Of a stretch of 64,000 nt of DNA, positions 345 through 64,000 are shown one piece after another; position 1 is the stretch's first letter; each line of letters begins with the position of its first letter. Below the pieces are notes generated by a model. That model did not search any database. It was not told the origin of the DNA and saw nothing but the letters and a program-made list of their open reading frames with translations. A program made the position numbers and the translations under genes. Source of the DNA: Escherichia phage pEC-M719-6WT.2. The stretch lies in sequence record OQ845958.1; one strand, 5' to 3'.

Positions 345-2155
345 TAAGCAATCCTTACCCAGCGATGAGCAATCAAATATGGAGGCATTGTATAAACTGG
401 TTGAGCTTGAGGGTCTTGCGCCTGATTAATGGTGGCTTTGTCTTCTCTGTATTTGGTATAGGCTGGACCTTGTGCATCTGGGTCTACCTGACAACCACCG
501 ACAACAATCGGACCATTATCATCAACAACTAAAACCTTCTCATCAGTTTCAAGTTTAGGTACGTTTATATCTTTAATATGAACTTCAACGCTACCACCTG
601 TACCACCTGCTGTCGCTTGTGGGTTACCACCAGAATCCAGGTCATTATTGTTTGTATGGAAGTTTGAGGCAGGGTCGTCTGACCAGGCAACAATTACACG
701 TTCTTTCAAACGTTTCCATGAACCAAATCCCATATAAGTAACCGGGTTATTTGGGTTAACTGTATTTTCGTAAATTGTACCGACCGGATAGAATAATTCA
801 AAGATAGCGCCAACAGAAGATGGAACAACTTCCTGAAGACCGACTGGTTCAACGTTTGGTGCAAACGGATTATCAAAATCTGTAATACGCACACGACCGG
901 TTAGGCTTAACGTATTTCCCTGAGAAACATAAAGAGTATCAGTCTCATCACGGATTTCATCCATGGTCATAGTTGTGCCGATATCGTTATTGTACCAAAT
1001 GACCGACAGAATATCACCGTCTTCAAATTCACGGTAAATGCTAATGCCTTCGATACGGTTATCATCATCAAATTGCAGCAAATAATCCTGGTTTGATTCA
1101 GACCAGCTACCACCATTTGCACTACATTCTGCAGCAGTAGAACCTTGTGCACCTTCACAATAAAATACTGGAGTTCCCGCAGTACCAGCTTGATGTTGCA
1201 AAATACTGTTAATGAATACCTGACATGCGTTTGGGTTAATTGGGCTACCCGGAGAAATACCAAGTTCTTCAATTGTAAAGGTGTGTTTGGTTGTCAAATC
1301 TGTAACAATCAAAGAACCATTAATTGTTGTTTCTTTGGTCCTGTCTTGACTACGAACAAGTATATCACGACGATTATACGAACTACGCCATTGAGCAATA
1401 CCATCATTAAATGTTCGGATGATAACAGTATCACCTTCAGCACATGGCATTTTCAGACGGATGCTTTTACCATCAAGCGCAACGATTTCACCAGGGTTTG
1501 CACCAGGGGAACCAAATTCAGCATTCACCGGGTCGAAAATATCATCTTTACCATAAAACAGGTCGTTACCACGATGTTTGACTTCTAAGTTCGATACGCT
1601 ATATGGAATAGCACCAAACACATTGATAAAGTCAGTTTGTCCTTCGGTGGCAATAAACTGTTGGGATGCAACTGTGGCAACGTCGTTATTTGAAATTTTA
1701 TCGACTTGTTTATTATCGATATATTCCCAACGACCTGGTGAACAATATACAAGTTCAAGGTCAGCTAAGTTGCGTTTAATTTCTACTGGATTCGGTGAGC
1801 CTTTAATCGTATCCCCAACTGCAGGAACAATTGTCACCGGGTTGATTTGCCAGGTAGCAAACACATCACGCAAGCGAATTACATAATTGTATTCTTGAGT
1901 TGTTCCTTTTGGAAGGATAACTCGAACTGCACCGGCTGATGTATCGATGGTATAGCTTCGACCCATAACAGCGGACAACTCGGTGCCTTCTTGCGTAGTC
2001 CAAGTTTTCCATGCACCAGCTGCATGGGGATTTTCACCGTCCCCTAGCTGATAATAAAGGTCATCAAAGTTATTATTTATTTTTTGACCGCCGAGACGAA
2101 GGTAATCACCAGTACCATCATCAACCATATTGCCAATTTTTAAATTCTGTTTCAT
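344..2155 (-). CDS. 10: baseplate wedge protein gp10
   Basis: 603-aa ORF, length and position (between 9 and 11) as in T4; identity by synteny and recalled similarity, no alignment run. Confidence 0.8.
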   Translation of the reverse strand: MKQNLKIGNMVDDGTGDYLRLGGQKINNNFDDLYYQLGDGENPHAAGAWKTWTTQEGTELSAVMGRSYTIDTSAGAVRVILPKGTTQEYNYVIRLRDVFATWQINPVTIVPAVGDTIKGSPNPVEIKRNLADLELVYCSPGRWEYIDNKQVDKISNNDVATVASQQFIATEGQTDFINVFGAIPYSVSNLEVKHRGNDLFYGKDDIFDPVNAEFGSPGANPGEIVALDGKSIRLKMPCAEGDTVIIRTFNDGIAQWRSSYNRRDILVRSQDRTKETTINGSLIVTDLTTKHTFTIEELGISPGSPINPNACQVFINSILQHQAGTAGTPVFYCEGAQGSTAAECSANGGSWSESNQDYLLQFDDDNRIEGISIYREFEDGDILSVIWYNNDIGTTMTMDEIRDETDTLYVSQGNTLSLTGRVRITDFDNPFAPNVEPVGLQEVVPSSVGAIFELFYPVGTIYENTVNPNNPVTYMGFGSWKRLKERVIVAWSDDPASNFHTNNNDLDSGGNPQATAGGTGGSVEVHIKDINVPKLETDEKVLVVDDNGPIVVGGCQVDPDAQGPAYTKYREDKATINQAQDPQAQPVYTMPPYLIAHRWVRIA

Positions 2156-3024
2156 TATACCGGTACTCCGATTGTTTGGGCGGAAATTACTTTAATAGCG
2201 AGCTTCATGGCAGTGGGTGAGCTTATAGCCGCCTGTATGATGTCCTGGTTATCAATTCTAAAATCGATAGCATATATCTCATCATCGTCGTTAGCTTGTC
2301 CACGTCTGATTACAGCGTATTCTGTGCTATATACCTTGCGGTCCTTAAGGTCGATGTAAAGTAACATTTCTGATGCTTTGTATTTAGTTTCGTCTGTTGA
2401 AATAGCCGTAAGCATCAATTTGATAGTTTTATAATCTGCGCGGTAAGCGATTGGAATATCACGAACAACCGAGCTCATATTGTATGTTTTGTCGAGCAAT
2501 ACAGATTGGTTACCAAACATACTTTCAATTTTGTAGTCCCAGGTCCCTACGCCGTTAGCATCGTCAATACACCACAATGTAATTTTTGTATAAGGCTGAG
2601 TAAATTTCATTTTGTTCGTTGCAGCGGTCAGGAATGAATCCGTGCCTTGTAGTTCAACTTCCAGAGGCATCGAGGTGGATAATGAACCATTGGAGTTAAT
2701 AAAGATAACACCTTCGCCTGCTTTACCTTTTGCAATTCTTGCGGTGATAACACCTTCGGCAGTATTGACATCACGCATAGAACCGAGAGCAACAGTTGAG
2801 TTCCATTCGATGATATTTGTAGCTTTTTGATAGTACCCAGTCGCATGAAGGACCTGGGTGTTTTCTCCATTGTTCACAGAGTACAGACGCTGGTCGCCAA
2901 ATGTATTATACAAACTGTCTAAATCCACGTTCAGTTTACGACCGCCTTCATATAGAATATCACCGGTGCTGGCGTTACCAATCTCGCCGATGTCTACTAA
3001 TAATTTTGGGGTTTGATTAATCAT
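2155..3024 (-). CDS. 9: baseplate wedge protein gp9 (long tail fibre socket)
   Basis: 289-aa ORF, T4-like length and position; preceded on minus strand by TATAAATA late promoter. Confidence 0.8.
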   Translation of the reverse strand: MINQTPKLLVDIGEIGNASTGDILYEGGRKLNVDLDSLYNTFGDQRLYSVNNGENTQVLHATGYYQKATNIIEWNSTVALGSMRDVNTAEGVITARIAKGKAGEGVIFINSNGSLSTSMPLEVELQGTDSFLTAATNKMKFTQPYTKITLWCIDDANGVGTWDYKIESMFGNQSVLLDKTYNMSSVVRDIPIAYRADYKTIKLMLTAISTDETKYKASEMLLYIDLKDRKVYSTEYAVIRRGQANDDDEIYAIDFRIDNQDIIQAAISSPTAMKLAIKVISAQTIGVPV

Positions 3025-3050
3025 AGGTAAGCCTCGTTATTGATATAGCT

Positions 3051-3058
3051 ATATTTAT
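3051..3058 (-). promoter_or_regulatory. late promoter box TATAAATA upstream of gene 9
   Basis: exact T4 late-promoter octamer on minus strand, about 25 nt upstream of gene 9 ATG. Confidence 0.55.
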
Positions 3059-3063
3059 AGAAT

Positions 3064-3085
3064 AAAAAAGGGACCCGAAGGTCCC
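3064..3085 (-). terminator. rho-independent terminator after gene 8
   Basis: GGGACC-CGAA-GGTCCC hairpin followed by U6 on minus strand, between gene 8 stop and gene 9 promoter. Confidence 0.6.
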
Positions 3086-3088
3086 TAG

Positions 3089-4093
3089 TTAGAATTCAAA
3101 AATAATGTTAACTTCTTCTGTCTGGTCCATTGCACGAATAATTGGTGGGCGGTTTTCCATATAAATCATTTCCCCAGAATGACGGTCCAAATCAATTGCA
3201 TCGTAGTATTCTTTGATTGCTTTGACATTTGGGTCATTAGGATGTACTTTAACTTCAAGTGGGTTGGATATAATCGACAGCTGTCGGAAGCCTTTGTTTC
3301 CCGGGAGACTGAATTCTGGGAAGTAAATGGAATCCATAAATGCTTTAAATCTGATTGTATATCCTTTGATTCTATATATTAAACCGAAATCATCTTGTTG
3401 CCAGCTGATATTGTCTTTGTAACCCCAACGTGACGGGTCTTCTTCGATTTCTTCAGGCCATGGAACAACAATATATTCGTTAGTACAGCGGTTGATGGAT
3501 ACATCAGGCGGAATCTCATACAAATATTCCCAGAGATAACCATCGCCCATATCAACTCGTCCTTCAGTGTCGCCAGTCCCTGCTGGAGCTCTCGTCGAGT
3601 TATATTCTGCCGTCCATTTACCACCGAGTTTTAAGCACTCTTCTTTATTGATAATGGAATAAATGGAGCAAGTCCCAACATCAGGAACATCTACACAACG
3701 ATAAACCATCCAACCTTTACCAACATCAGTTCGGTTATATGGAGCACTGTTAGCTACAACAATTTCCCCTACCTGGAAGTTAAGCGGATTAGGATATCTG
3801 ATATCGCCCCAGTCTTTACGTGGGACAACACAATCAAGCATTGATTTATAAACTTTGACTGCCCCCATCATATTGGTCCAAGTATCTTCAACACCTTGTG
3901 CTGTATCAACTGGATAAGGAGGGGCGAACCCCGGGTCATTCTCATTCGAAGCCCAAGGTTCAGCACGACCGAATGTTACATACATCGTATTCTGGTCGGG
4001 CTCGTTACCAATCATTTTATAAAAGTTATACATTTTTTCAGTTCGAAATTTCGAGGTAATTATCGAACGATAAACTACAGATGAATTATTCAT
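3089..4093 (-). CDS. 8: baseplate wedge protein gp8
   Basis: 334-aa ORF; N-terminus MNNSSVVYRSIITSKFRTEKM matches recalled T4 gp8; same length as T4 gp8. Confidence 0.9.
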   Translation of the reverse strand: MNNSSVVYRSIITSKFRTEKMYNFYKMIGNEPDQNTMYVTFGRAEPWASNENDPGFAPPYPVDTAQGVEDTWTNMMGAVKVYKSMLDCVVPRKDWGDIRYPNPLNFQVGEIVVANSAPYNRTDVGKGWMVYRCVDVPDVGTCSIYSIINKEECLKLGGKWTAEYNSTRAPAGTGDTEGRVDMGDGYLWEYLYEIPPDVSINRCTNEYIVVPWPEEIEEDPSRWGYKDNISWQQDDFGLIYRIKGYTIRFKAFMDSIYFPEFSLPGNKGFRQLSIISNPLEVKVHPNDPNVKAIKEYYDAIDLDRHSGEMIYMENRPPIIRAMDQTEEVNIIFEF

Positions 4094-7000
4094 TTACCTT
4101 TACCTGTGTTGGGTCTTTCGGGTCGCGTGGATTACCAATATCATCCTTAAGACGTTGATTAACCAAATTGCGCCAGTTAGCAAAAGTCACGGCAGACTGG
4201 TCAAACAATGGACTGTATTTTTTACGACGTTCAGACGGGAGAGTCCCATGAAAATCTGAAAAATCGTTTTCGGCATCATAATCTGCTGGTAATGGGAATG
4301 GTAAACCTGCATTAGGAGCAATATTATATACCGCTTCACCTGTAACAGGGCTACGCTCAATGTTTCCATCGGCCCCAATAACTGCGATACGGTCGCACCA
4401 TTCTGACGGAATACCTGACGACCAACGATAGTTGTTCAGTTTATTGATAATAGTTTCGGTATGTTTTAATGACAGACCAGCATTAACAAACATTGTCAAT
4501 AATGTAATTCCAACGAATCCAAATCCAACCGGATGAACAAATCGCAATACGTCATTACGATAACGAGATGTTGGGAGACTTGATTTAATGGTCATTACAT
4601 AGTAAGAACGATTTCGGTTGATATAATCGATGTTGTTGCTAAGTAATTCTTTCCCACGAACACCCTGAACAATCATACCTTCAAAGGAAGTCCTTTCGGA
4701 TTTAATTTCTTGCCCAACAATAAAGCGACCAAGTAAGTTATGAATCGTGATACGCCATCTCAATTTCCCCTGTTTGTAGTCACGTTCCATATAAGTAACG
4801 TTACTGCGACCAGTTGGTGTGTAAATTGTTTGTCCAACAATATCTTCGCTGATGTTATCAGATTCGACGATTATATCATACTCGGTTCCGTTCTTGGATT
4901 CAATATCGATTTCAACGTCTTCATTATATAACAATTTGAACAAAAACTTATAGGATGCTTCAGTACCCTTAGTGGACCAAAAATCAGACTGTCTTGCTTC
5001 AAAGAAACGAACTACTTCGTCGCGCTTGGTCTTTGACAAATATATGTTTCTTTTGTACATTTCGCTCCAAAGGTATTCCCATGCATCTTCCTCGCGCGGG
5101 TACTGGTTGCGAATTAAGTTCAAAAGGTTGTTATAATAGGTGCCAGAGCCATCACTGATAAACTGTAAATAATATTCACAGAATTTTTCGAAGTTGCTAT
5201 CCTGGAGCAAATAACTATCCGGAACCATCTTTGTTAAAAGAGGACGCAAGTCTGGGTCTTTCTCTTGTTCGTCATTATCTGGGGTCCATGGAATATCATG
5301 TTCCTGGTTCTGTAATTCTGCAGTGAACATAACTTCTTTCGGTTTCCAGATTAATCTAACTTCATCACGTCTACGATAGTCAAATTCAAAATAGCCAATA
5401 AGCTCTCCAGTATTTTTGTGTAACATAATACCCGAGGCGTATTTTTTAAAGCCATTGAATTCGATGTTAGGAGAAGTAACTTTTACTTGACCTTTATTCC
5501 AGTATTCGTGTACAATACGTTCAGGCGATGAACCACCAAAGGTATCGATAATCTTTTGATATAGCATGTCATTATATACAACCAGAGCTCTGTCTGATGT
5601 GGTAATCCAACAACGAGTATCATCACGACGAGACCAGTTAAAGAACGGTTCAGCGTAATATGACATACGACCAGGTTTAAACTCTTCCCAACCTGAATCT
5701 TTATTCGACCTAAAACTCATCATCAAATAATGCTTGTCATGTATCCATTGTTCGTCATACACATATTTGACTGCTTCATTAACTTCTTCAGGATACTTAG
5801 CAGGGAGTTCAGTATCCGGCTCTACGGAATAACGGAAGTTACTTGAACTGATAAAAAGTTCAATTCCGTCGGTTGACATGCTTGTGTAACCATGTTCAAT
5901 ACGTCGACGTTCATCCTCTGTGTTACCAAAAACTCGTGTCCATGTATCGGTGTCAGCATTTAATTTATAAACGCCCTTTGATAATGAATCGACAACGTTT
6001 TCAGGTTTAGTCGGGTCTTGTCGCTCTTCTTTTACTTCACCCGTGATTAATGCAAATACTTCACCATCAATTGCATCCATCTTATAACAAACAGCTTTGG
6101 GGTTACCACTTATTGTGCTATATCCAGCTTCAAATAATTTTTCACCGAATGTTGGGGAGTTGGGGTCGTTATCAATTGGAGCATCAGAAGATTTAGCTTT
6201 GTACACACGGTCGCGCCCGGCAACGTAAATCATGGAATCGGTCGTAGTGATTGCTTCAGCAATTGTCGAGATATAAGCAGGAAGTCTTGCGTATGTGCCA
6301 AATATTTCAATATCAAATCCAAGATTGATATCCGAACCAATTTTTGCAAATGTTATGTCCTGAGAACTGAATCGAACATCATCAGCAGACCATCTTATGT
6401 CACTTGATTTGCGACCGTAAAAAATTCGGTCATACCCGAGTACATAAGTTGTTGTATCTGATTGATAATAAATTGTGCGCGATACTGGGTTACCGATACG
6501 GTCATTAAACAATTTTACATAATACCAGTTCTGCCCTTTATCATTGGAGACTTTGACAGTTGTCTGGAATCGTTCAAACAAATACAGTACGCCACCGAGT
6601 TCAGCAATCATTGTACGATTAACATCGTTACATACCGGCTGAATGCTACCCTGGATTTCGTGGTATTGGTCTTCTTTTAATACATAGTTTGAAATTGAAG
6701 ACAAATGAGAATACGCAGGAGTAAAGCTAAAATCTTCAGACATCAGCGATGCCATAATTGCATCATTATTAAAGTTGATATAAGCTTGGTTATTGTTTGT
6801 AAATTTTTCTTCGATGAATTTATTTGTTAATGTAAATTCACGCATGTGCTCAAATGTGTATGCGTTAGTTGCAAAGGTTTCAAATTCTTCGGTATAAACC
6901 CAATCAGATTGTTCAAAACCCATTGCTGCAACAGCAACACGCATTTTGTAAAATGATACTGGACGAATAAAATCTTGTTCGAACCATTCATTGTCTGGAG

Positions 7001-7181
7001 TATAACCTAAATTCCTCCATAACAGATTTTCTTCTGGAATAGCAACACCATTTTCTTTTGTCGTAGCAATCTCAACAAAATAATAAAAGTTGGCGCCAAC
7101 ATTATCCCATTTTATGCTAACCTGGTTAGCAGATAGTTTATCAATCCGTAAGCTGGTTACATAAGGGGCTTTAACACTCAT
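4086..7181 (-). CDS. 7: baseplate wedge protein gp7
   Basis: start moved to second of two adjacent ATGs after SD AAGGAA (MSVKAPYVTSL...), giving 1031 aa, T4 gp7-like; ORF-track upstream extension would overlap gene 6. Confidence 0.85.
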   Translation of the reverse strand: MSVKAPYVTSLRIDKLSANQVSIKWDNVGANFYYFVEIATTKENGVAIPEENLLWRNLGYTPDNEWFEQDFIRPVSFYKMRVAVAAMGFEQSDWVYTEEFETFATNAYTFEHMREFTLTNKFIEEKFTNNNQAYINFNNDAIMASLMSEDFSFTPAYSHLSSISNYVLKEDQYHEIQGSIQPVCNDVNRTMIAELGGVLYLFERFQTTVKVSNDKGQNWYYVKLFNDRIGNPVSRTIYYQSDTTTYVLGYDRIFYGRKSSDIRWSADDVRFSSQDITFAKIGSDINLGFDIEIFGTYARLPAYISTIAEAITTTDSMIYVAGRDRVYKAKSSDAPIDNDPNSPTFGEKLFEAGYSTISGNPKAVCYKMDAIDGEVFALITGEVKEERQDPTKPENVVDSLSKGVYKLNADTDTWTRVFGNTEDERRRIEHGYTSMSTDGIELFISSSNFRYSVEPDTELPAKYPEEVNEAVKYVYDEQWIHDKHYLMMSFRSNKDSGWEEFKPGRMSYYAEPFFNWSRRDDTRCWITTSDRALVVYNDMLYQKIIDTFGGSSPERIVHEYWNKGQVKVTSPNIEFNGFKKYASGIMLHKNTGELIGYFEFDYRRRDEVRLIWKPKEVMFTAELQNQEHDIPWTPDNDEQEKDPDLRPLLTKMVPDSYLLQDSNFEKFCEYYLQFISDGSGTYYNNLLNLIRNQYPREEDAWEYLWSEMYKRNIYLSKTKRDEVVRFFEARQSDFWSTKGTEASYKFLFKLLYNEDVEIDIESKNGTEYDIIVESDNISEDIVGQTIYTPTGRSNVTYMERDYKQGKLRWRITIHNLLGRFIVGQEIKSERTSFEGMIVQGVRGKELLSNNIDYINRNRSYYVMTIKSSLPTSRYRNDVLRFVHPVGFGFVGITLLTMFVNAGLSLKHTETIINKLNNYRWSSGIPSEWCDRIAVIGADGNIERSPVTGEAVYNIAPNAGLPFPLPADYDAENDFSDFHGTLPSERRKKYSPLFDQSAVTFANWRNLVNQRLKDDIGNPRDPKDPTQVKVNE

Positions 7182-7197
7182 CATGGTTTCCTTAAAA

Positions 7198-7213
7198 AGC
7201 CTCCGAAGAGGCT
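7198..7213 (-). terminator. hairpin plus U5 between gene 6 and gene 7 (attenuator or mRNA stability element)
   Basis: AGCCTC-TTCG-GAGGCT hairpin followed by UUUUU on minus strand immediately before gene 7 SD. Confidence 0.4.
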
Positions 7214-9159
7214 TATAGTGTAATCGGTTCAAGGTCAATCTTTGTATATTGCGGACGAAGGTCATTCTCAAATACAATCAGTGAACCATCTTGCGTGTAT
7301 ATATTATCTTGGTTGGGACTTGCATAAAGTTCGATTGATTGAACTTCAAAGCGCTCGGATGTCAATCCAATCGCGGCGATATCCCAAAAAATATAGTCAG
7401 AGTAATAGTCAATTTCGCCAATTGCGTAATAAACTGTTTGGTCAGCCGGAGCTTCCATTTTATTAAAGTCATCTTGTAGGTAAGGCTGGATGTTTACGTT
7501 TTCGATAACATCACCCGGACGGAATGGACCAATTACCATTTTGCCATCACCACGAGAATCTTTATCAGTTGCAACAATGCGAACGTTATAGGCTTCACCC
7601 GTAGTCGGAACAAATTCAAATTCGCTTGATTCGACTGAACGGTTGCCATACTGGTTATAGTATTTAATGCCGGATTCCGGAGTCTTAAAGAAGTTCAGGA
7701 CCTCACGCACCATCGAAATGGTTGCAGACGAACCAAGAATACTATGGTCGGTATTATCCACATATGTAAGCATTTTTGACTTAGCAAAACTTCTGTTAAA
7801 GATTTCAACTTCATCGATATAATAACGGTCAATCTGATTAATGATTTGTGCTTGCAACCATTGTTCAGATTCTTGTAATTTGTTCAGCGCATAAGACACT
7901 TTGATATTATGTTTAAGGAACAAATAATCCGGAGAAATTACCGATGGTGTAATTGTTGATACGTTGAACTCGCTAAGGTAGTTCTGGATATCCTCACGCT
8001 GCACTGCAGTGAGATATAAGCCCGATTTAGGCTTAACTGATATAAACGCATACCCTGGTTTATTAGCGTCTGTAAACGTCTGTACGGCTTGCACGATTGA
8101 GCCAAATCTTTCGGATACGAAGGTATCATAATCCGTTCCGGTGACAGCACGCATCTGCGCTTCACGTTTAACAACAGCCAGTTCACGGATACGTTCGATA
8201 TCTTCTGGGTCACCACCACCATCAGCACCGACATAATCAGGGTCGTTATTATAGTTTTCGGTAATTTTATCCACTGTAATATAAGACAAAGTATCAGCAT
8301 AACTAAAATCAACAGCGCCGTTTGCATCTGCCCCGGAAGTACGAAGATACTCAATAACAATTGTTGAATCTTGCACAGGTTTAAGACCGCCAATATAGTT
8401 GGCTTCCATAACGCCACCGGCCACAGATTTAGTGGATTCACCTTCACCGAAGAAAAATTCGGTATAGCCATCAATTGTTTCACGCATATAAAATATGGTG
8501 GAAGTCGAACCAGCATGAACCATTGATTTGTTCGTCCAGTCATCCCACTCAACACCATTCACATATAACTTAACTTCTTTGCGGTCAATATCCGGGTCGC
8601 GGATAAGAATAGGTTGTTTCGGGTCATATAAAAGTTCCGTACGAATAATACGACCCTGTGCCAGAGATACAATCGGAAGGTATTGGTTGTTAATATCTTT
8701 AACCGCGATAACGTTTTCCGTGGTAACAAAAACATAAGGGTCAGCTGATGTATCACGAGCATAAGCCAGGAATTTAGTTCCTCGTGGGATTTCAATATTC
8801 GATGGTTGCAGAGCATGAGAACATGTCAACATAACCGAAGTCTTTGCAGCCGAGCGAGAAGATGGAAGATAACCATTATCCTGTGCAGCCTGAACAACTG
8901 AAGACCTTAAGTTTGCAGTTCCGATAAATGATTCGTAAACCGCCGTGTTAGCAAACTGCTGCATATACAATGTATTATATGCAAGCATATCAATCAGGAT
9001 ATTCATTCGCGAACCTACGAAATCATAATCCTTAAATTCATCCTGGCTTGATAACCAGTCGATGATATTCTTTTTAATTTCTTCAAACGTAGCTCCCACA
9101 AATACTTTTGGGATAGCGTTAACGGTTCTTGTTAATTGGTAATTCGTAGGAGTAGCCAT
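7213..9159 (-). CDS. 6: baseplate wedge protein gp6
   Basis: 648-aa ORF in the T4 position between 5.x and 7. Confidence 0.8.
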   Translation of the reverse strand: MATPTNYQLTRTVNAIPKVFVGATFEEIKKNIIDWLSSQDEFKDYDFVGSRMNILIDMLAYNTLYMQQFANTAVYESFIGTANLRSSVVQAAQDNGYLPSSRSAAKTSVMLTCSHALQPSNIEIPRGTKFLAYARDTSADPYVFVTTENVIAVKDINNQYLPIVSLAQGRIIRTELLYDPKQPILIRDPDIDRKEVKLYVNGVEWDDWTNKSMVHAGSTSTIFYMRETIDGYTEFFFGEGESTKSVAGGVMEANYIGGLKPVQDSTIVIEYLRTSGADANGAVDFSYADTLSYITVDKITENYNNDPDYVGADGGGDPEDIERIRELAVVKREAQMRAVTGTDYDTFVSERFGSIVQAVQTFTDANKPGYAFISVKPKSGLYLTAVQREDIQNYLSEFNVSTITPSVISPDYLFLKHNIKVSYALNKLQESEQWLQAQIINQIDRYYIDEVEIFNRSFAKSKMLTYVDNTDHSILGSSATISMVREVLNFFKTPESGIKYYNQYGNRSVESSEFEFVPTTGEAYNVRIVATDKDSRGDGKMVIGPFRPGDVIENVNIQPYLQDDFNKMEAPADQTVYYAIGEIDYYSDYIFWDIAAIGLTSERFEVQSIELYASPNQDNIYTQDGSLIVFENDLRPQYTKIDLEPITL

Positions 9160-9167
9160 TTTATTTC

Positions 9168-9461
9168 CTATTTTATAAAGACTTTTGATGAGGCTTGAGC
9201 CACAGTATCACCACATGAAATCGGGTCTGCCATTTGAACAGCTTTCTTACCGGTAACGAATACCTTTGATGTACGCGGTTGTGTTACTCCGCCGTGGGTT
9301 TCATATGGTTTTTTAATTTCGGTATGCTCGGTAATAGGGTCTCCGGCAACTAATACTGGAATTCCCCCGGTGAATACTTTACCTTGAGTTGCATTAATTA
9401 CAGTCGGCGGCCATGCTTCGTGGCCTGCTGTAACACATTGATTAAAACTTAATCCAGCCAT
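9168..9461 (-). CDS. 5.4: PAAR-repeat tail spike tip protein gp5.4
   Basis: 97-aa ORF, same length and position as T4 gp5.4; Gly/Val-rich PAAR-like sequence. Confidence 0.7.
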
Positions 9462-9982
9462 TAATCCCTCGCGTATACGTATGAACGCAATTTATCGGCC
9501 CATCTTGACCAGTTGCCAACGATAGTTTTTGTGTAAACTTTTGTCATTGTCTTTCTTACTGGAGCAGGAGGTGGGTCGGTCTCATTACCTGTACGGCTAT
9601 TACTGCCACCAGAGTTCCCTGTGTCTCCACCAGAGCTCTCTTCTTGAAAATCATAGGTTAGGGTTACCGTGTATGAAAAGACCTTCTGGAGGCTCGATGG
9701 GGCCCTCCAGAGATACAATTGAGTACTCTTATCGGTAGGAAGGTCTTCCCATGAACCAGCAGTTTTAAATTCGTCATTAAGCCGATATTTAAGTGCATCA
9801 TCTGCAAATCCGAACACGGATTCATAAACACCATAAAGATGATTTCCCTCAACATTAACGCCAGGGGTGACCTCATATTCAGTTATATTTATTTCGACTA
9901 ATGTTTCGTTTGTTTCTAATTGAGCTGTAAACGTAACATCGATTGAGGCTCCTTCCATGGAGTCTCCTAGGTCAGTGCTCAT
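9461..9982 (-). CDS. gp5.1-like protein downstream of gene 5
   Basis: ORF in position of T4 5.1; start set at first ATG after gene 5 stop (MSTDLGD...); start uncertain. Confidence 0.5.
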
Positions 9983-9992
9983 CGGAAGTATA

Positions 9993-37514: not shown

Positions 37515-37967
37515 ATGATTATCAATACAAACTCATGGCACGCTCGTTTCCACGACCGTTTTTATGACCGTCATTCTCGTCCACACTCTTTGTGTGCTTA
37601 TTTCTGGAAAATGGTTTGGGCTTGTTTTGTTTGTGCCGTTTTTATCGGTAGTATGGTTTTTGGATTAACTGTCGCGGGTGCAGGTGTATTAGAGCATTTC
37701 TTTGTATTAAGCACCCCGGTCGGTTTAGGCTTAGGGTTTATTTTAGGACTAGCTACACTGGCTCTTATTCTGACGGTAGCATTTGGTCTAATGTATGGTC
37801 TAATGAATTTATGGGCCTGGTACGATTTACGTAAAGAAGAAAAAGAATGGGAACGCATTAAAGCTAAACGTGAAGGAAAGGAAATTAAAGAAAATGTTTT
37901 CATTCAATATATCAAAGCTCGTAAATCTAAGATGTGCCCAGTAATCCACTTCGAGGACAAAGAATGA
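37515..37967 (+). CDS. membrane protein
   Basis: 150 aa, two long hydrophobic segments. Confidence 0.55.
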   Translation: MIINTNSWHARFHDRFYDRHSRPHSLCAYFWKMVWACFVCAVFIGSMVFGLTVAGAGVLEHFFVLSTPVGLGLGFILGLATLALILTVAFGLMYGLMNLWAWYDLRKEEKEWERIKAKREGKEIKENVFIQYIKARKSKMCPVIHFEDKE

Positions 37968-38974
37968 AAACTATTATGAAAGGCTACTTCGGTAGCCACC
38001 TTTATGGAACAAGCACCCCAGAATCTGATGTTGATTTTAAAGAAATCTTTGTTCCTCATCCGCGAGATATCCTGCTCGGAACCGCGATGAATCATACAAA
38101 CCTGAACACGAATAACACGGCTACCAAAAACACAAAAGACGATATCGATCATGAATTATTCAGTCTGAAATATTTCTTTAAACTGGCTGCCGAAGGCGAA
38201 ACCGTTGCCCTGGATATGATTCACACCCCGGCTGACCTGGTAGTCAAATCCGATTTACCAGATGTATGGAAGTTTATTCAAGACAACCGTTCGCGGTTCT
38301 ATACAACTAACATGAAAGCCTATTTGGGGTACGTCCGTAAGCAAGCTTCCAAATATGGTGTTAAAGGTTCTCGATTGGCTGCACTGCGTGGTGTACTGAC
38401 AATTGTTAACCAGATTCCTGAACAGTGTGTCGATTATCAAGAAGATGGTTCTATTAAACAACGTCGAACTAAAGTAGAAGATATTAAGCACCGGCTCCCT
38501 GAAAACGAGTTCTGTGAATGGGTATTTCATAACCATGAGAAAACAGGTCCTCAAACGTTCTATACTGTTCTTGGACGTAAGTACCAAACCACCCTGTCTT
38601 TAATCGAGCTCAAGCAATCTCTGAATAAACTTGATGCCGAATATGGTGAACGTGCTCGTAAGGCTGAAGCCAATGAAGGTATTGACTGGAAAGCATTGAG
38701 TCATGCTTACCGAGCTGGATATCAGCTGAAGGAAATCTATCAAACTGGTGACCTGGTTTATCCACTTAAAAATGCTTCTATTATTAAAGCAATAAAAGCT
38801 GGTGATATGCCTTTCAAAGTAGTTCAAGGCCTGTTGGAAAATACTGTTGATGAAGTTGAAGTCCTGGCCATCCAGGCTGCTAAGAATGGTATGCCTGCGA
38901 AGGTGGACATGAAGTTCTGGGACAAGTTTGTTGAGGAGGTATATCTTGACAACCACAATTCCTATTATCGATAA
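37964..38974 (+). CDS. Pol-beta superfamily nucleotidyltransferase-like protein
   Basis: GSHLYGTSTPESDVDF fits hG[GS]-x(9-13)-DhD motif; 336 aa; ATGA overlap. Confidence 0.55.
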   Translation: MKTIMKGYFGSHLYGTSTPESDVDFKEIFVPHPRDILLGTAMNHTNLNTNNTATKNTKDDIDHELFSLKYFFKLAAEGETVALDMIHTPADLVVKSDLPDVWKFIQDNRSRFYTTNMKAYLGYVRKQASKYGVKGSRLAALRGVLTIVNQIPEQCVDYQEDGSIKQRRTKVEDIKHRLPENEFCEWVFHNHEKTGPQTFYTVLGRKYQTTLSLIELKQSLNKLDAEYGERARKAEANEGIDWKALSHAYRAGYQLKEIYQTGDLVYPLKNASIIKAIKAGDMPFKVVQGLLENTVDEVEVLAIQAAKNGMPAKVDMKFWDKFVEEVYLDNHNSYYR

Positions 38975-39170
38975 CCAGGAAATCAAGGTCTTCTTATCGT
39001 ATGGAAGACCTAATAAAGGTCGGCGCTGGTATCTCGAAGCAGTCTGTCGGGAAACTGGCAGACGAATCAACAATAAGTACATATGCAAACCAACTCCCAA
39101 ACAAACTCGCAGGTTTGTTAACTGGGCTATCAATACTATAAGATTCCATAATTTTTGGAGTGCAATCTAA
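38946..39170 (+). CDS. candidate small basic protein with TTG start
   Basis: TTG 7 nt after GAGGAGG, overlapping 3' end of upstream gene; no ATG in frame. Confidence 0.3.
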   Translation: MTTTIPIIDNQEIKVFLSYGRPNKGRRWYLEAVCRETGRRINNKYICKPTPKQTRRFVNWAINTIRFHNFWSAI

Positions 39171-39192
39171 GGGCCATCTGGCCCTTTTTTGT
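39169..39192 (+). terminator. rho-independent terminator
   Basis: GGGCCA-tct-GGCCC followed by TTTTTTG. Confidence 0.7.
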
Positions 39193-39939
39193 TTATGAAG
39201 TCACTGTTTGTTCGGCTACTAACAATGCAGAGGTTATTGTAAAGTTGCCGCCATTTGGCATAACAGTTATCGCTGTACCATTGGTTGCCATTGCCCCATC
39301 TTTATCAATGCTAAAGAACGTTGTAAAAGACAAAATATCTGTAGCATTTTCCGGACGATTTTGTATATAAGTGTTTCCGTTGGTTCCAACGAAATTTAAT
39401 GTTATACTTCGAGCTTGCGAGCTTCCTGTAAAATTACCAATAAGGTTGAGTTTAAATAATAGGCTTCTGTCTTGGTTATATGGCCACAACTTATCATCAG
39501 TGGTTCTAAAAAACGGAGATAGAGTCCCTGCTGTCGGCGGAATCCCCTTTAAAACACTAATTATGTTTGACGTCACACCATTAGTTAATAGAACGTTTAT
39601 ACCACTCCAAAACACCTCGGATTTTTCCCTCTTTCCTGCTGTATCAGTTAAAAAATCATCAACAGTTCCTGTATTTCCCAAGTCAAGCCATATCTGATAA
39701 GAAGACTTTCCATCCCCGCCTGGGTCTCCTTTTGGTCCTGGTACACCCGGTTCTCCTTTGGGACCAGGCGGACCCGGTATCTGAGTTTCCGAGCTGGACA
39801 TAGTTTGGAAAAAACGCTCTTTGCTATCTGTAGGAGTATTCGGCAACACCATAGTAGAACCAAACAAATACCAATTATTAGCCAAGGCAGCCTGGACTTT
39901 TTCATTGAGTTCATCAACAGTTCTTCCGGATAAAATCAT
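39193..39939 (-). CDS. collagen-like repeat protein (fibre-like), only minus-strand gene in the early region
   Basis: 248-aa ORF with GPPGPKGEPGVPGPKGDPGGDG (seven G-X-Y triplets); SD AAAGGAG. Confidence 0.7.
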   Translation of the reverse strand: MILSGRTVDELNEKVQAALANNWYLFGSTMVLPNTPTDSKERFFQTMSSSETQIPGPPGPKGEPGVPGPKGDPGGDGKSSYQIWLDLGNTGTVDDFLTDTAGKREKSEVFWSGINVLLTNGVTSNIISVLKGIPPTAGTLSPFFRTTDDKLWPYNQDRSLLFKLNLIGNFTGSSQARSITLNFVGTNGNTYIQNRPENATDILSFTTFFSIDKDGAMATNGTAITVMPNGGNFTITSALLVAEQTVTS

Positions 39940-40056
39940 AAACTTTCTCCTTTATGGTTTTATTAAGTATTTTTATTTAGTATATGTGTACAACCAGATG
40001 GTCATGATGCATAATGATTCCATACTGAGTTACCAAATAAACAAACGGAGAATAAA

Positions 40057-40263
40057 ATGTTAGAATTAATCAAAGCTGCTGGTGAAAAAGGTCTGATGGT
40101 TAACACTCGTGACCCTGAACAACGTCAAGCATTTGGTGAGTTAAAAGCCAAAGGTCTGGTTAAAGCATCCCTTGGTATTGGTAATGCTTTGCGTGTGACT
40201 TTGACCCCTGCAGGTAAAGCAATGTTCTTCCCTAAACCATTACCAAAACGTCGTCGCAAGTGA
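40057..40263 (+). CDS. small basic protein
   Basis: 68 aa, C-terminal KRRRK. Confidence 0.5.
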   Translation: MLELIKAAGEKGLMVNTRDPEQRQAFGELKAKGLVKASLGIGNALRVTLTPAGKAMFFPKPLPKRRRK

Positions 40264-47088: not shown

Positions 47089-47562
47089 ATGTTGTTGACT
47101 GGCAAATTATACAAAGAAGAAAAACAAAAACTTTATGATGCACAAGCTGGTAAGTGTCCAATTTGCCACCGTGATTTGGACTCCGATGTTCAGGCCAACC
47201 ATCTTGACCATGACCACGAATTGAACGGGCCAAAAGCCGGTAAGGTTCGCGGGTTACTATGCAATCTGTGCAATGGGACAGAAGGACAAATGAAGCATAA
47301 GTTCAGCCGTTCGGGTCTGAAAAGTCGCGATGTTGACTACCTGGAATGGTTAGAGAGTTTGCTTGTCTATCTGAAATCTGATTATACCGAAAACAATATT
47401 CACCCCAATTTTGTAACAGACAAAGCCAAAGAGTTCGGTCGTCTGGGGAAAGAAGAAATGATTCGGGAAATGCTTTTGAATGGTATGACTTATAATGAAT
47501 CTGACACCAAAACACAATTAATGGCTTCATTTAAGAAGCAGCTTAGAAAGAGTTTAAAATGA
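47089..47562 (+). CDS. 49: recombination endonuclease VII (Holliday junction resolvase) gp49
   Basis: MLLTGKLYKEEKQK...NHLDHDHELNGPKAGKVRGLLCNLCN...SFKKQLRKSLK nearly identical to recalled T4 endo VII. Confidence 0.95.
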   Translation: MLLTGKLYKEEKQKLYDAQAGKCPICHRDLDSDVQANHLDHDHELNGPKAGKVRGLLCNLCNGTEGQMKHKFSRSGLKSRDVDYLEWLESLLVYLKSDYTENNIHPNFVTDKAKEFGRLGKEEMIREMLLNGMTYNESDTKTQLMASFKKQLRKSLK

Positions 47563-49376
47563 CAATTGAAAACGAAATTGAAGGATTGATTCATAAAACT
47601 AATAAAGACCTTTTAAACGAGAATGCTAATAAAGATTCTCGTGTTTTTCCAACTCAACGGGACCTTATGGCTGGTATTGTATCTAAACACATTGCCAAAA
47701 ATATGGTTGCGCCTTTTATTATGAAAGCACATGAAAGTGGAATTATTCATTTCCATGATATTGATTATTCCCCTGCTCTTCCATTTACTAATTGCTGTTT
47801 AGTAGATTTAAAAGGAATGCTTGAGAACGGATTTAAGCTTGGTAATGCACAGATTGAAACTCCTAAATCAATCGGTGTTGCTACTGCAATTATGGCACAA
47901 ATTACTGCACAGGTTGCTTCTCACCAATATGGCGGAACGACTTTTGCTAATGTAGACAAAGTATTTTCTCCTTATGTTAAACGTACATACGCAAAACATA
48001 TTGAAGATGCAGAAAAATGGCAAATCACTGATGCATTGAATTATGCCCAATCTAAAACAGAAAAAGACGTATACGATGCATTCCAAGCTTATGAATATGA
48101 AGTAAATACTCTCTTTAGTTCAAACGGACAAACGCCTTTTGTAACCATTACATTTGGTACGGGAACTGACTGGACTGAACGAATGATTCAGAAAGCAATT
48201 CTGAAAAATCGTATCAAAGGTCTTGGTCGCGATGGGATAACTCCTATTTTCCCTAAACTTGTTATGTTCGTTGAAGAAGGTGTTAATCTTTATAAAGACG
48301 ACCCGAACTATGATATTAAGCAGCTTGCTCTAGAGTGTGCAAGCAAAAGGATGTATCCTGATATTATTTCAGCTAAGAATAATAAAGCTATCACTGGTTC
48401 ATCTATTCCTGTTTCTCCAATGGGTTGCCGTAGTTTCTTGGGCGTATGGAAAGATTCGACTGGTAATGAAATTCTTGATGGACGTAATAATCTTGGTGTT
48501 GTAACACTGAATCTTCCTCGCATTGCGTTAGATTCTTATATTGGAACACAGTTCAATGAACAGAAATTTATCGAATTGTTCAATGAGCGAATGGATTTGT
48601 GTTTTGAAGCTTTGATGTGTAGAATTAATTCCTTAAAAGGAGTTAAAGCGACTGTTGCTCCTATTCTTTACCAAGAAGGTGCATTCGGGGTTCGTCTTAA
48701 ACCTGATGATGATATAATTGAGTTATTTAAAAACGGTAGAAGTTCAGTGTCTTTGGGATACATTGGTATTCACGAATTGAATATTCTTGCCGGTCGTGAT
48801 ATTGGGCAAGAAATTTTAACTAAAATGAATGCTCGTCTTAAGCAGTGGACTGAAAGAACCGGTTTTGCTTTTAGTTTGTATTCTACACCTGCTGAAAACC
48901 TTTGTTATCGCTTCTGTAAACTTGATACTGAAAAATATGGAAGTGTAAAGGATGTTACTGATAAAGGCTGGTACACTAATAGTTTCCATGTTTCAGTAGA
49001 AGAAAATATCACCCCGTTTGAAAAGATTTCCCGCGAAGCTCCATATCATTTCATTGCGACAGGTGGTCACATTTCTTATGTTGAACTTCCTGATATGAAA
49101 AATAACTTAAAAGGTCTTGAGGCTGTATGGGATTATGCTGCGCAACATTTAGATTATTTTGGTGTTAACATGCCAGTAGATAAATGTTTTACGTGTGGAA
49201 GTACCCATGAAATGACTCCTACTGAAAACGGATTTGTTTGTTCTATTTGTGGAGAAACTGACCCTAAAAAGATGAACACAATAAGAAGAACTTGTGGTTA
49301 TTTGGGAAATCCGAACGAACGCGGATTTAATCTCGGCAAAAATAAAGAAATCATGCATAGGGTTAAACACCAATGA
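47559..49376 (+). CDS. nrdD: anaerobic ribonucleoside-triphosphate reductase NrdD
   Basis: 605 aa as T4 NrdD; C-terminal CxxC...CxxC and glycyl-radical region; uninterrupted (no intron). Confidence 0.9.
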   Translation: MTIENEIEGLIHKTNKDLLNENANKDSRVFPTQRDLMAGIVSKHIAKNMVAPFIMKAHESGIIHFHDIDYSPALPFTNCCLVDLKGMLENGFKLGNAQIETPKSIGVATAIMAQITAQVASHQYGGTTFANVDKVFSPYVKRTYAKHIEDAEKWQITDALNYAQSKTEKDVYDAFQAYEYEVNTLFSSNGQTPFVTITFGTGTDWTERMIQKAILKNRIKGLGRDGITPIFPKLVMFVEEGVNLYKDDPNYDIKQLALECASKRMYPDIISAKNNKAITGSSIPVSPMGCRSFLGVWKDSTGNEILDGRNNLGVVTLNLPRIALDSYIGTQFNEQKFIELFNERMDLCFEALMCRINSLKGVKATVAPILYQEGAFGVRLKPDDDIIELFKNGRSSVSLGYIGIHELNILAGRDIGQEILTKMNARLKQWTERTGFAFSLYSTPAENLCYRFCKLDTEKYGSVKDVTDKGWYTNSFHVSVEENITPFEKISREAPYHFIATGGHISYVELPDMKNNLKGLEAVWDYAAQHLDYFGVNMPVDKCFTCGSTHEMTPTENGFVCSICGETDPKKMNTIRRTCGYLGNPNERGFNLGKNKEIMHRVKHQ

Positions 49377-61511: not shown

Positions 61512-64000
61512 ATGCAAGAATTTTATTTAACTATCGAACAAATCGGTGACAATCTGCTCGAACGATACATTGACAAGAACGGTCATGAACGTGTTCGTGA
61601 AATCCCTTATGCTCCATGCTTGTTTATGCATGCTCGCGAAGACCAGGCTGCAAAGTATACAGACATCTATAATAAAGGTTGTGTGAAAAAAGAATTCGAT
61701 TCCATGCGTGATGCATCCCAGTGGATGAAGCGAATGAATGACATGGGTCTCGAAGCTATGGGTATGGATGACTTTAAACTCGCATACTTGTCCGACCGTT
61801 ACCCGCACGAAATCAAATACGATTCAAGTAAAATCCGTGTGGCTAACTTCGATATCGAGGTGACATCTCCTGATGGGTTCCCTGAGCCGTCTGAAGCACG
61901 TCACCCTATTGATGCCCTGACGCACTATGATTCGGTAGACGATAAATTCTATGTCTTTGACCTTTTGAGCTCACCATACGCCACTGTGGAGCAATGGTCT
62001 ATCGATATTGCTGCTAAGCTGCAAGAAGATGGCGGTGATGAAGTCCCTGAAGAAATCCTGGAAAAAATTGTTTATATGGCTTTCGATTCAGAAGAAGAAA
62101 TGCTCCAGCAGTATTTGGTATTCTGGAACGAGAAAACTCCGGTTATGTTAACTGGTTGGAACATCGAGAAGTTTGATATTCCATATATCTACAACCGCCT
62201 TAAAAATGTATTTGGTGAAGCTACAGCAAAACGACTGAGTCCACATCGTCGTACAAAAGTTAAGGTCATTAACAATGGCTTCGGTGAAGAACAAGAAATC
62301 ATTCAGATTCTGGGTATCTCTGTTCTGGATTATCTGGACCTGTACAAAAAGTTCAGCTTCACAAACCAACCGTCTTATTCGTTGGATTATGTTGCGGAAT
62401 CTGAACTTGGTGTTGGTAAACTCCCGTATGATGGTCCGATTTCTAAACTGCGTGAATCAAATCACCAACGGTATATTTCTTATAACATCATTGATGTTTA
62501 TCGTGTTGTGCAGATTGACCGTAAGCGGCAGTTTATTAACCTGAGTCAGTCAATGGGTTATTACGCAAAAATGCAGATTCAGTCTGTATTCAGCCCAATC
62601 AAAACTTGGGATGCGATTATCTTTAACAGCCTGAAGACTCAAAACAAAGTCATTCCGGAAACCAAATCGCATGTTCGCCAATCGTTCCCTGGTGCATTTG
62701 TTAAGGAACCGATTCCGAACGCATACAAATACGTTATGAGCTGTGACTTAACATCTCTGTATCCGAGCATCATTCGACAGATTAACATCAGTCCAGAAAC
62801 GATTGCCGGGTCATTTGCACCAGCGCCGATGTACGAATACATTGCAGGAACTGCTGACCGTCCATCTGATACATTTAGTTGTGCTCCAAACGGTATGATG
62901 TATTTTAAAGATGTTGCGGGTATTATTCCGACAGAAGTCACCAAGGTGTTTAATCAGCGTAAAGAGCATAAAGGTTATATGCTTGCGGCTCAACGTAATG
63001 GTGAACTGATTAAGGAAGCCCTGCGTAATCCAGGAACTGGTACAACCGAGCCTGAAGTTGATTATCGTTATGACTTTGATGACAATATGAAAACAACCTT
63101 GCATGGTCTGAATCAAACAGTTCTGAATGGTATGTTGTACAAAGCGCAAATGGAAGAAGTTGCAGGCATGACCGCACAGATTAACCGTAAACTGCTTATC
63201 AACAGTTGTTATGGCGCTCTGGGTAATATCTGGTTCCGTTACTTTGACCTGCGAAATGCAACCGCGATTACATCTTTCGGACAACTTGCATTGCAGTGGA
63301 TTGAGCGTAAAGTTAACGAATATTTTGATAGTGTTTGCGGTACAAGTGGTGAAACATATGTATTCTATGGTGATACTGACTCCATTTATATCCAGTGCGA
63401 TAACCTGATTAAAAAGGTTGGTGGTGAATCTAAATTCCGCGATACAAACCACCTGGTTGACTTCATGGACAAGTTTGCGAAAGACCGTCTGGAACCGGCA
63501 ATCGATAAAGCTTTCCGTGAGCTGGCTGAATACATGAACAACAAACAACACCTTATGTTTATGGACCGTGAAGCGATTGCATGTCCTCCGCTGGGTTCTA
63601 AAGGTGTTGGTGGATTCTGGACAGCGAAGAAGCGTTATGCTCTGAACGTGTACGATATGGAAGGCACACGATACGCTGTTCCGAAACTGAAAATCATGGG
63701 CCTGGAAACTCAAAAGTCGAGTACACCAAAAGCATGTCAGAAAGCTCTGAAAGAATGTATCCGCCGTATGCTGCAAGAAGGTGAAGAATCTCTGCAGACA
63801 TACTTCAAGGAATTCAACAAGGAATTTAATGAGCTTAACTACATGACCATCGCAGGTGTATCATCAGTTAACAACATCCAGAAATATAATGAGGGTGGTT
63901 TCCCTGGATTTAAGTGCCCAGCTCATATCAAAGGCGTGCTCGCTTACATGCGTGCAACTAAAGGTATGAAGACTGTTCCACAAATCATGGAAGGGGAAAA
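61512..64000 (+). CDS. 43: DNA polymerase gp43, N-terminal part (3' end beyond window)
   Basis: open frame from ATG 61512 to window end; exonuclease motif FDIEV, polymerase motifs DxxSLYPS and YGDTDS; antisense ORFs here rejected. Confidence 0.95.
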   Translation, partial: MQEFYLTIEQIGDNLLERYIDKNGHERVREIPYAPCLFMHAREDQAAKYTDIYNKGCVKKEFDSMRDASQWMKRMNDMGLEAMGMDDFKLAYLSDRYPHEIKYDSSKIRVANFDIEVTSPDGFPEPSEARHPIDALTHYDSVDDKFYVFDLLSSPYATVEQWSIDIAAKLQEDGGDEVPEEILEKIVYMAFDSEEEMLQQYLVFWNEKTPVMLTGWNIEKFDIPYIYNRLKNVFGEATAKRLSPHRRTKVKVINNGFGEEQEIIQILGISVLDYLDLYKKFSFTNQPSYSLDYVAESELGVGKLPYDGPISKLRESNHQRYISYNIIDVYRVVQIDRKRQFINLSQSMGYYAKMQIQSVFSPIKTWDAIIFNSLKTQNKVIPETKSHVRQSFPGAFVKEPIPNAYKYVMSCDLTSLYPSIIRQINISPETIAGSFAPAPMYEYIAGTADRPSDTFSCAPNGMMYFKDVAGIIPTEVTKVFNQRKEHKGYMLAAQRNGELIKEALRNPGTGTTEPEVDYRYDFDDNMKTTLHGLNQTVLNGMLYKAQMEEVAGMTAQINRKLLINSCYGALGNIWFRYFDLRNATAITSFGQLALQWIERKVNEYFDSVCGTSGETYVFYGDTDSIYIQCDNLIKKVGGESKFRDTNHLVDFMDKFAKDRLEPAIDKAFRELAEYMNNKQHLMFMDREAIACPPLGSKGVGGFWTAKKRYALNVYDMEGTRYAVPKLKIMGLETQKSSTPKACQKALKECIRRMLQEGEESLQTYFKEFNKEFNELNYMTIAGVSSVNNIQKYNEGGFPGFKCPAHIKGVLAYMRATKGMKTVPQIMEGE

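Follow-up and report, generated by a model that had tools for sequence, protein, structure and literature searches.

The tail needles of phages Sf6 and HS1 are tipped by a knob domain (PF16532; PDB 3RWN and 4K6B). A related domain is encoded by a lone minus-strand gene at positions 39193-39939 of a 64,000-nucleotide stretch of Escherichia phage pEC-M719-6WT.2 (OQ845958.1), which was analysed here and is called the window in the following. Both the knob family and its occurrence among T4-like phages were already known, and its members are annotated as PHROG 1030 or, in RefSeq, as 'tail needle knob'. What is new is that the N-terminus of the protein is recognised as a DUF1737 anchor, which moves it from the tail to a probable place as head decoration, and that a late gene within an early region is a conserved layout. 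No prior description of either the anchor or the layout was found in the literature searched. We propose, with a rough probability of 0.55, that the product of the gene is an accessory virion fibre, made late as a homotrimer and most likely decorating the capsid.

The window protein is a relative of the Sf6 knob domain and not a tail needle. The needle plug and the coiled-coil needle of Sf6 gp9 and P22 gp26 have no Pfam or PDB match in it; a G-X-Y shaft is found instead, and the phage to which it belongs is a T4-like myovirus without a needle. At the other end of the protein, the closest described system is gp84 (vb_24B_21) of phage phi24B, a NanS-p-type esterase. A preprint combining cryo-electron microscopy and proteomics assigned the central-hexon density of each T=9 face to gp84 residues 2-57 and concluded that DUF1737 is a capsid-binding decoration domain (bioRxiv 10.64898/2026.04.10.717836). 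In both proteins, a homologous N-terminal module of about 55 residues is followed by a flexible linker and a cargo that faces, or in the window protein would face, outward. The cargo of gp84 consists of an esterase and a lectin, whereas that of the window protein is a collagen stalk and a knob. An SSP-type autoprocessing motif was not seen in the window protein, though no search aimed at one was made.

T4 Hoc occupies the centre of the hexon. It is a dispensable late protein, hexon-anchored and with an outward binding domain, and this is the role proposed here for the window protein. The two are related neither in sequence nor in fold: Hoc is a monomer with tandem immunoglobulin-like (Ig-like) domains and a C-terminal capsid-binding domain, whereas a Pfam scan of the window protein revealed no immunoglobulin-like domain, and the PHROGs assign it to 'tail needle knob'. 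The PRD1 P5 spike, Bacillus BclA and C1q/adiponectin show a sequence identity of only 5-13% to the window protein, and therefore they may resemble it by analogy or through very remote homology. With 8 triplets, the window stalk is far shorter than theirs, and different anchors are used.

Finally, the hyperplastic regions of T4-type genomes contain PeSL cassettes, in which a stem-loop terminator and a strong sigma-70-like early promoter mark a point of insertion, deletion or replacement (Arbiol et al. 2010, PMC2839356; Comeau et al. 2014, PMC4122927). The open reading frames (ORFs) without relatives that they flank are usually early-oriented. The knob gene, in contrast, is late-oriented, and it splits its cassette as a module that brings its own hairpin.

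Layout and conservation of the knob protein

The gene and the parts of its product are as follows.

39193-39939, minus strand: coding sequence of 248 aa plus stop, ATG start; DUF1737-like anchor, collagen stalk, linker and Sf6-type knob
39947-39953, minus strand: ribosome-binding site AAAGGAG (AAAGGAGA), 7 nt upstream of the ATG
39778-39939, minus strand: divergent DUF1737 module, residues 1-54, putative virion (capsid hexon) anchor, from Pfam, hidden Markov model (HMM) and hhalign comparisons
39703-39774, minus strand: collagen-like stalk, residues 56-79, GPPGPKGEPGVPGPKGDPGGDGKS, eight in-register G-X-Y triplets, read from the sequence
39646-39702, minus strand: two-helix linker 'SYQIWLDLGNTGTVDDFL', residues 80-98, a module repeated in many phage fibre proteins
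39196-39645, minus strand: Sf6-type knob, from matches to Pfam PF16532 and PDB

The original prediction, which was made from the DNA letters alone, had placed a 248-aa ORF at exactly these coordinates, and both its ATG and its ribosome-binding site were found. The homologs in phages C6 and AnYang have the same ribosome-binding context. In seven pairwise comparisons, the ratio of non-synonymous to synonymous substitution (dN/dS) was 0.07-0.24, indicating purifying selection on the ORF. For the window gene and that of phage RZ, dN/dS was 0.235, with 8.5 non-synonymous and 10.5 synonymous changes (binomial P ~0.001-0.005). We take this selection as an argument that the gene is still used in the Gaprivervirus lineage. 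Together with the domain matches, the dN/dS values rule out a chance ORF: the knob gene is real, protein-coding and selected. Lack of conservation in related phages had been named as an outcome that would speak against the prediction. Full-length homologs were found in 41 phage records, and the ORF is intact in 8/8 Gaprivervirus carrier records, at an identity of 97.6-98.8%, the proteins being 96-98% identical.

The module formed by residues 1-54 is kept in all full-length homologs. Pfam PF08410 (DUF1737) was matched by the N-termini of 7/7 family members at scores below the gathering cutoff of 24 bits (best E 7e-6), and one member of the family, P0129, itself passes the cutoff (26.2 bits). 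When the N-terminal profile HMM was searched exhaustively against 1.84 billion representative proteins, only 12 proteins were returned. Among these were two bona fide single-domain DUF1737 proteins, P0133 (40.4 bits) and P0134 (27.6 bits), retrieved at E 1e-4. Alignment of 13 N-termini with phi24B gp84(1-57), P0133 and P0134 using hhalign gave a probability of 98.1% and an E of 1.2e-13 over 53 columns. In the AlphaFold2 (AF2) model, strands are predicted at residues 2-5, 24-33 and 41-48 and a helix at 8-20, with a predicted local distance difference test (pLDDT) score of 70-82 for most of the module. This fold of one helix and three strands matches the description of DUF1737 (~55 residues). 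Given the DUF1737 homology and the role of the domain in phi24B, the window protein can be described as anchor, stalk and knob, the anchor being homologous to a capsid anchor.

None of the 42 records of isolated phages in which the anchor was found combines it with another cargo; they comprise the carriers of the knob protein and vB_Cfr_Xman, where the knob match covers 68% of the query. Two metagenomic proteins are built differently. P0016 (379 aa) has a DUF1737-like anchor and a knob, and its shaft consists of six tandem 'GKSAYQxW...FxxSL' units. P0127 (520 aa) starts with two tandem DUF1737-like modules, which are followed by IQWR-type repeats and no knob. These layouts indicate that the anchor is combined with other fibre bodies outside the isolated phages.

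At the C-terminus, PF16532 (Phage_tail_NK) matched residues 99-244 with 111.4 bits (E 4.7e-32; gathering cutoff 27 bits), and phmmer retrieved PDB 3RWN (E 2.1e-31) and 4K6B, both at about 2e-31. All AF2 models are monomers, and since an alignment of 10 sequences gave a pLDDT of 63.5, one of 52 sequences was used. With the latter, the knob was modelled at a pLDDT above 90 as a TNF-like jelly-roll that can be superposed on the Sf6 knob, and thus structure prediction yielded the confident C-terminal knob that had been anticipated. The C-terminal part had also been described as rich in Thr, Asn and Gly. Its composition (T 14%, N 9%, G 9%) agrees with this, and it is a defined domain rather than a region of low complexity. 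In the Sf6 and HS1 knobs, L-glutamate lies at the subunit interfaces, where it makes intimate contacts with E146, K200, S248 and D250 (PMC3741392). These residues map to E108, K163, S210 and D212 of the window protein, and across the 52 sequences each of them is either invariant or conserved at 90% or more.

The linker between stalk and knob is modelled with helices at residues 80-86 and 93-101. It is the sole part shared with the otherwise unrelated collagen-containing phage fibre proteins P0010-P0014, and in P0016 it is present in six tandem copies. As for the stalk, the seven uninterrupted G-X-Y triplets noticed earlier are present at residues 56-79, and they become eight when the in-register GKS is counted. 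The triplets are rich in Pro and charged residues, and runs of such length are expected by chance at about 3e-5 in a protein of the same composition. The Pfam Collagen family (PF01391) scores 17.9 bits, below its cutoff of 27.2, because the tract is short. If triple-helical, the stalk would be about 7 nm long. The number of triplets varies from 8 in the window to ~9 in C6 and AnYang, ~11 in PEi20 and ~15 or more in fHe-Yen9-01, and it is 0 in the homologs of RB43, CfP1 and Carvaje. The collagen tract is thus a spacer that varies in length, while the anchor and the knob on either side of it stay constant. With a TNF-like knob of the Sf6 type, such a shaft and an N-terminus homologous to DUF1737, the architecture is of the fibre or decoration kind that had been suspected.

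The anchor and the knob can be exchanged separately. From -150 to about nt 310, which covers anchor, stalk and linker, the C6 gene (L007 2501-3256) is 100% identical to that of AnYang, a phage of the same genus, Dhakavirus. From about nt 320 to 120 nt beyond the stop codon, covering the knob and the hairpin, it is 92-98% window-like. The recombination breakpoint lies at the conserved KSEVFW that opens the knob. Because it falls at the knob border, we conclude that the anchor follows the chassis of the virion, whereas tips pass from one genus to another. A constant anchor with a swapped tip is the pattern of structural fibres.

A late-oriented gene in an early region

The window genome belongs to Gaprivervirus (VR7-like T-even phages, Straboviridae), with ECML-359 (98.9%) and RZ (95%) as best matches. 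Its plus strand is the early direction, running from tk to nrdC, nrdD, genes 46, 45, 44 and 62, regA and gene 43. The minus strand holds the late baseplate genes 5-10 at 344-12364, and the knob gene, lying on the same strand, is thus late-oriented. Across the equivalent 50 kb of RZ, an annotated relative, it is the only one of 110 features on the opposite strand, and in the window all other minus-strand ORFs that reach 110 aa overlap plus-strand genes. It is therefore, as predicted, the sole convincing minus-strand gene between 12.4 and 64 kb.

The same arrangement was observed in other genera. In RZ, C6, AnYang, fHe-Yen9-01, PEi20, KLB31, phi1_146015, CfP1 and RB43, which represent six genera of Straboviridae, the homolog is a lone opposite-strand gene, and in all nine it lies within a few genes of nrdC.11. 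The proposed check of synteny in relatives was thus positive. From these genomes, the knob gene appears to be old, roughly syntenic and sporadically retained in Straboviridae.

The signals around the gene in the window are the following.

39968-39981, minus strand: degenerate T4-type late-promoter region ACTAAATAAAAATA, the same in the window and RZ
39169-39196, no strand assigned: GC stem-loop AAGGGCCATCTGGCCCTT with T-run, early (plus-strand) terminator and also 3' hairpin of the knob gene, from a terminator scan
39987-40015, plus strand: sigma-70-like early promoter TGTACA-N17-CATAAT, the promoter half of the PeSL, predicted to restart plus-strand transcription, from a promoter scan
39169-39986, no strand assigned: variable module, in its extent compared with Gapriverviruses that lack the gene, from alignments in which homology stops at ~39168 and resumes at 39987

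The flanking terminator and promoter that had been noticed correspond to the stem-loop at 39169-39186 and the early promoter at 39987-40015. In the gene-less phages P896, UPEC07 and VR7, an identical early promoter directly abuts the stem-loop, and the slot reads ...CTAAGGACCCTTCGGGGTCC-T6-ATTTTAAAAAGTAG-TGTACA-N17-CATAAT. A terminator and a sigma-70-like early promoter thus stand at a presence/absence boundary, as is characteristic of a PeSL. The module contains its own hairpin (GGGCCATCTGGCCC, 39169-39186, 6 nt past the knob stop), the knob gene and the promoter region. A hairpin follows the stop codon directly in every homolog, and that of the module differs in sequence from the hairpin of the gene-less relatives, which indicates that it travels with the module. 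Its T-run on the plus strand suggests that it halts the incoming early transcript before an antisense run through the late gene. Within the genus, the slot has at least four kinds of contents, and the knob gene is carried by about 8/25 records with a best match of 90% identity or more. The idea of an inserted module hence stands in one respect, as the gene sits exactly between the stem-loop and the promoter of a PeSL that is intact in gene-less relatives. It fails in another: recent foreign insertion as the whole story was rejected, since the gene is roughly syntenic beside nrdC.11 in six genera.

In homologs from five other genera of Straboviridae, TATAAATA or CATAAATA is found 29-33 nt upstream of the ATG. 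The perfect late promoter TATAAATA is present in Dhakavirus (C6, AnYang), Tegunavirus (fHe-Yen9-01) and Kanagawavirus (PEi20, KLB31), and CATAAATA, at -30, in Pseudotevenvirus (RB43, CfP1) and the unclassified Klebsiella phage phi1_146015. Position -13 of T4-type late promoters tolerates A or T (Nolan et al. 2006, PMC1524935). In the window, the weak TAAATA-type match seen earlier is ACTAAATA at 39981-39974, -42 from the ATG, overlapped by TAAAAATA (7/8) at -36. Late gene and operon starts of the genus show a perfect TATAAATA in 14/15 cases and AATAAATA in 1/15. No canonical late promoter was found further upstream on the minus strand (39940-64000), and a promoter scan detected no sigma-70-like site upstream of the knob gene on this strand. 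Because the late promoter is non-consensus, expression may be weak in the window lineage. Overall, the prediction of late expression is well supported for the family by the strand and by the promoters in five other genera, and its strength in the window lineage is uncertain, given the degenerate motif.

These observations bear on the alternative that the gene is a poorly expressed or silenced remnant, which has a decayed late promoter and whose ORF persists only through recent insertion. In line with this, ACTAAATA stands in place of TATAAATA, and its C at -12, rare in the other T4-like phages analysed by Nolan et al. (PMC1524935), occurs in 0/15 of the late starts sampled. The minus strand offers no alternative promoter, and the closest record, ECML-359, leaves the gene unannotated. 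However, CTAAATA is the functional late consensus of Aeromonas phage Aeh1 (PMC1524935), and ACTAAATA is overlapped by the 7/8 match. Moreover, the purifying selection between window and RZ acts within the lineage, and both the ORF in all eight carriers and the ribosome-binding site are intact. We consider a remnant to be very unlikely.

Proposed position of the fibre on the virion

Evidence from outside the Straboviridae and from divergent homologs concerns the location of the protein. In the Klebsiella siphophages Carvaje and VLCpiS10a (57-60 kb), the gene for anchor and knob overlaps the terL stop codon and precedes the portal gene; the Carvaje-type knob gene lies 15-20 kb away from the tail-fibre genes. 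In Aeromonas phage 31, a homolog with fibre repeats and a knob, without DUF1737, is encoded between the genes for the major head protein (gene 23) and the vertex protein (gene 24). We read the window protein most likely as a head decoration fibre rather than the 'tail needle knob' of the databases.

An alternative is an accessory protein of the tail or baseplate, located at the tail tip or its periphery and touching the outer membrane during adsorption. It is suggested by the knob being the tip of the Sf6/HS1 needle, by the PHROG 1030 category 'tail' and the RefSeq/PHROG name, and by knob-only proteins in virions of Ackermannviridae. Indeed, the knob-only homolog Sajous1 gp119 was detected with 16 spectra in CsCl-purified Kuttervirus virions, in a list that also includes non-structural proteins. 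In the metagenomic protein P0104 (405 aa), an Sf6-type knob directly follows a T7-type tail-fibre N-terminus (PF03906, E 3e-7), and hence a knob can be the distal domain of a genuine tail fibre. Both the Sajous1 gp119 spectra and the layout of P0104 also count for our own reading of a virion fibre. The window protein, however, has DUF1737 instead of the N-terminal plug domain and the coiled-coil shaft of P22-like needles. T4-like tails carry a gp5/gp5.4 spike and offer no needle site, and the Carvaje and phage 31 neighbourhoods are head modules, not tail modules. A tail location thus seems unlikely.

The original prediction had left open an accessory virion protein or a moron, and we favour the former as the more probable. 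The protein could also be a non-virion late product, a soluble trimeric knob that is freed at lysis, or acts on the envelope from within, and binds a surface ligand. Such a knob might, for instance, block rival phages, keep progeny from adsorbing to debris again or influence the host. The hyperplastic region of non-essential genes and the patchy carriage would suit a dispensable accessory gene or moron, and a TNF/C1q-like fold is characteristic of soluble trimers that bind ligands. On the other hand, its sequence has no signal peptide or membrane segment, and its conserved N-terminal module is homologous to a particle-binding domain. The mosaic of constant anchor and swapped tip is the signature of structural fibres, and in siphophages the gene is translationally coupled to terL. 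A soluble function, including the roles just mentioned, is in our view improbable.

Several points weigh against a capsid fibre. The window N-terminus scores only 17.7 bits against DUF1737 (E 0.0033), below the cutoff of 24 bits, and the capsid-binding role of this domain comes from a single preprint that has not been reviewed. The aromatic 'tooth' with which gp84 is anchored, Tyr42, has no counterpart in the window loop PNTPTDSKE. The equivalent loop has no aromatic residue in the window, C6 and AnYang, and Y or F in RB43, fHe-Yen9-01 and PEi20. The major capsid proteins of phi24B, Carvaje and the T4-like phages are unrelated in sequence, so the binding partner on the capsid is not conserved; a single capsid protein family common to the DUF1737 carriers was ruled out (Gp23 versus Phage_capsid_3 for phi24B). 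DUF1737 is hexameric on the phi24B capsid, whereas collagen and knob imply a trimer. Mutants of the Sf6 knob and knob swaps gave no host-range phenotype in P22 hybrids (PMC3741392). RZ, also a Gaprivervirus, encodes a Hoc-like protein, which rules out the knob fibre as a Hoc replacement. Virion proteomics or imaging of full-length homologs was not found in the literature searched, where the carriers fHe-Yen9-01, CfP1, GuL6, EcRAM-01, vB_YenM_P8 and Carvaje were the targets for proteomics. To these points, the non-consensus late promoter of the window has to be added.

Taking both sides together, we favour an accessory capsid fibre that might work as follows. After the gp55-dependent late switch, the knob gene would be read from its own promoter against the surrounding early genes, from which the hairpin terminator on one side and the early promoter on the other would insulate it. 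Three chains would trimerise via the C-terminal TNF/C1q-like knob, and L-glutamate would probably occupy the interfaces between subunits, as it does in Sf6. A collagen triple helix of ~7 nm could then be nucleated by the knob together with the two-helix linker. By analogy with phi24B gp84, which sits at the central pore of the major capsid protein hexamer, the three DUF1737 modules would anchor the fibre to the particle. The knob would project outward, like the Ig domains of Hoc or the PRD1 P5 knob, and may provide weak adhesion to a ligand on the cell surface or in the environment rather than essential receptor binding.

More tentatively, the family may represent a second head appendage that is independent of Hoc, trimeric, collagen-stalked and tipped with a C1q-like knob, in at least six T4-like genera and in Carvaje-type siphophages. 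DUF1737 would then be a portable 'hexon plug', adapted to unrelated capsid proteins of the HK97 fold, that couples varied cargos such as an esterase or a knob to heads. The knob itself would be a capsid-borne adhesin whose tip is swapped between genera.

Neighbouring genes and meaning for T4-like phages

On one side, the knob gene is neighboured by nrdC.11 (nucleotidyltransferase, 37934-38974) and a small VR7ORF100c-like ORF, on the other by an RB69 ORF102c-like gene (40057-40263). The small ORF (38928-39170, plus strand) is basic, has 80 aa from a TTG and overlaps the 3' end of nrdC.11. It has homologs in VR7ORF100c and UPEC07 QUL77658, is absent from P896 and unannotated in RZ, and is a further presence/absence polymorphism of the same slot. 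Annotation of the region is uneven among relatives. In ECML-359 (OL631482.1), the closest genome, the knob gene at 47430-48173 was left out, and among PP693301, OL451225 and MW250787, nrdC.x genes including the nucleotidyltransferase nrdC.11 are called 'thioredoxin', apparently through propagation of names.

Elsewhere in the window, a minus-strand ORF of 321 aa with a TTG start (62811-63776) falls in the stretch where RZ has its DNA polymerase gene; most likely it is spurious, an antisense ORF and not a second minus-strand gene. Six perfect TATAAATA motifs are found on the plus strand (12347, 14794, 16092, 18046, 19394 and 34891) and the minus strand has just one, at 3059, upstream of gene 9. 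From the plus-strand motifs, genes of the 12-35 kb block are probably transcribed late; in RZ, the corresponding region is annotated with the gene 1/3/57, internal protein and lysozyme genes. In Aeromonas phage 31, two extra genes are present (L018 1268-2432): ORF163w, which encodes the fibre-repeat and knob protein, and ORF162w, whose 95-aa product matches no family. The two may make up a head-fibre pair of Biquartavirus.

Even if the capsid assignment is wrong, the locus remains a clean example of a late gene that is insulated in an early hyperplastic region by a split PeSL, and the domain-precise swapping of tips between genera still stands. Few virus shells have been studied as well as the capsids of T4-like phages, which are in wide use for display, and to our knowledge Hoc and Soc are their only known decorations. 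If our reading is true, a third, fibre-like decoration with a portable anchor would change the picture of the T4-like virion surface, and a function would be found for a family listed as 'function unknown' since 2013, to which RefSeq now gives the wrong name of 'tail needle knob'. It would also provide a small natural anchor for phage display, and the role of DUF1737, a domain of about 3000 proteins, would be extended to another capsid lineage.

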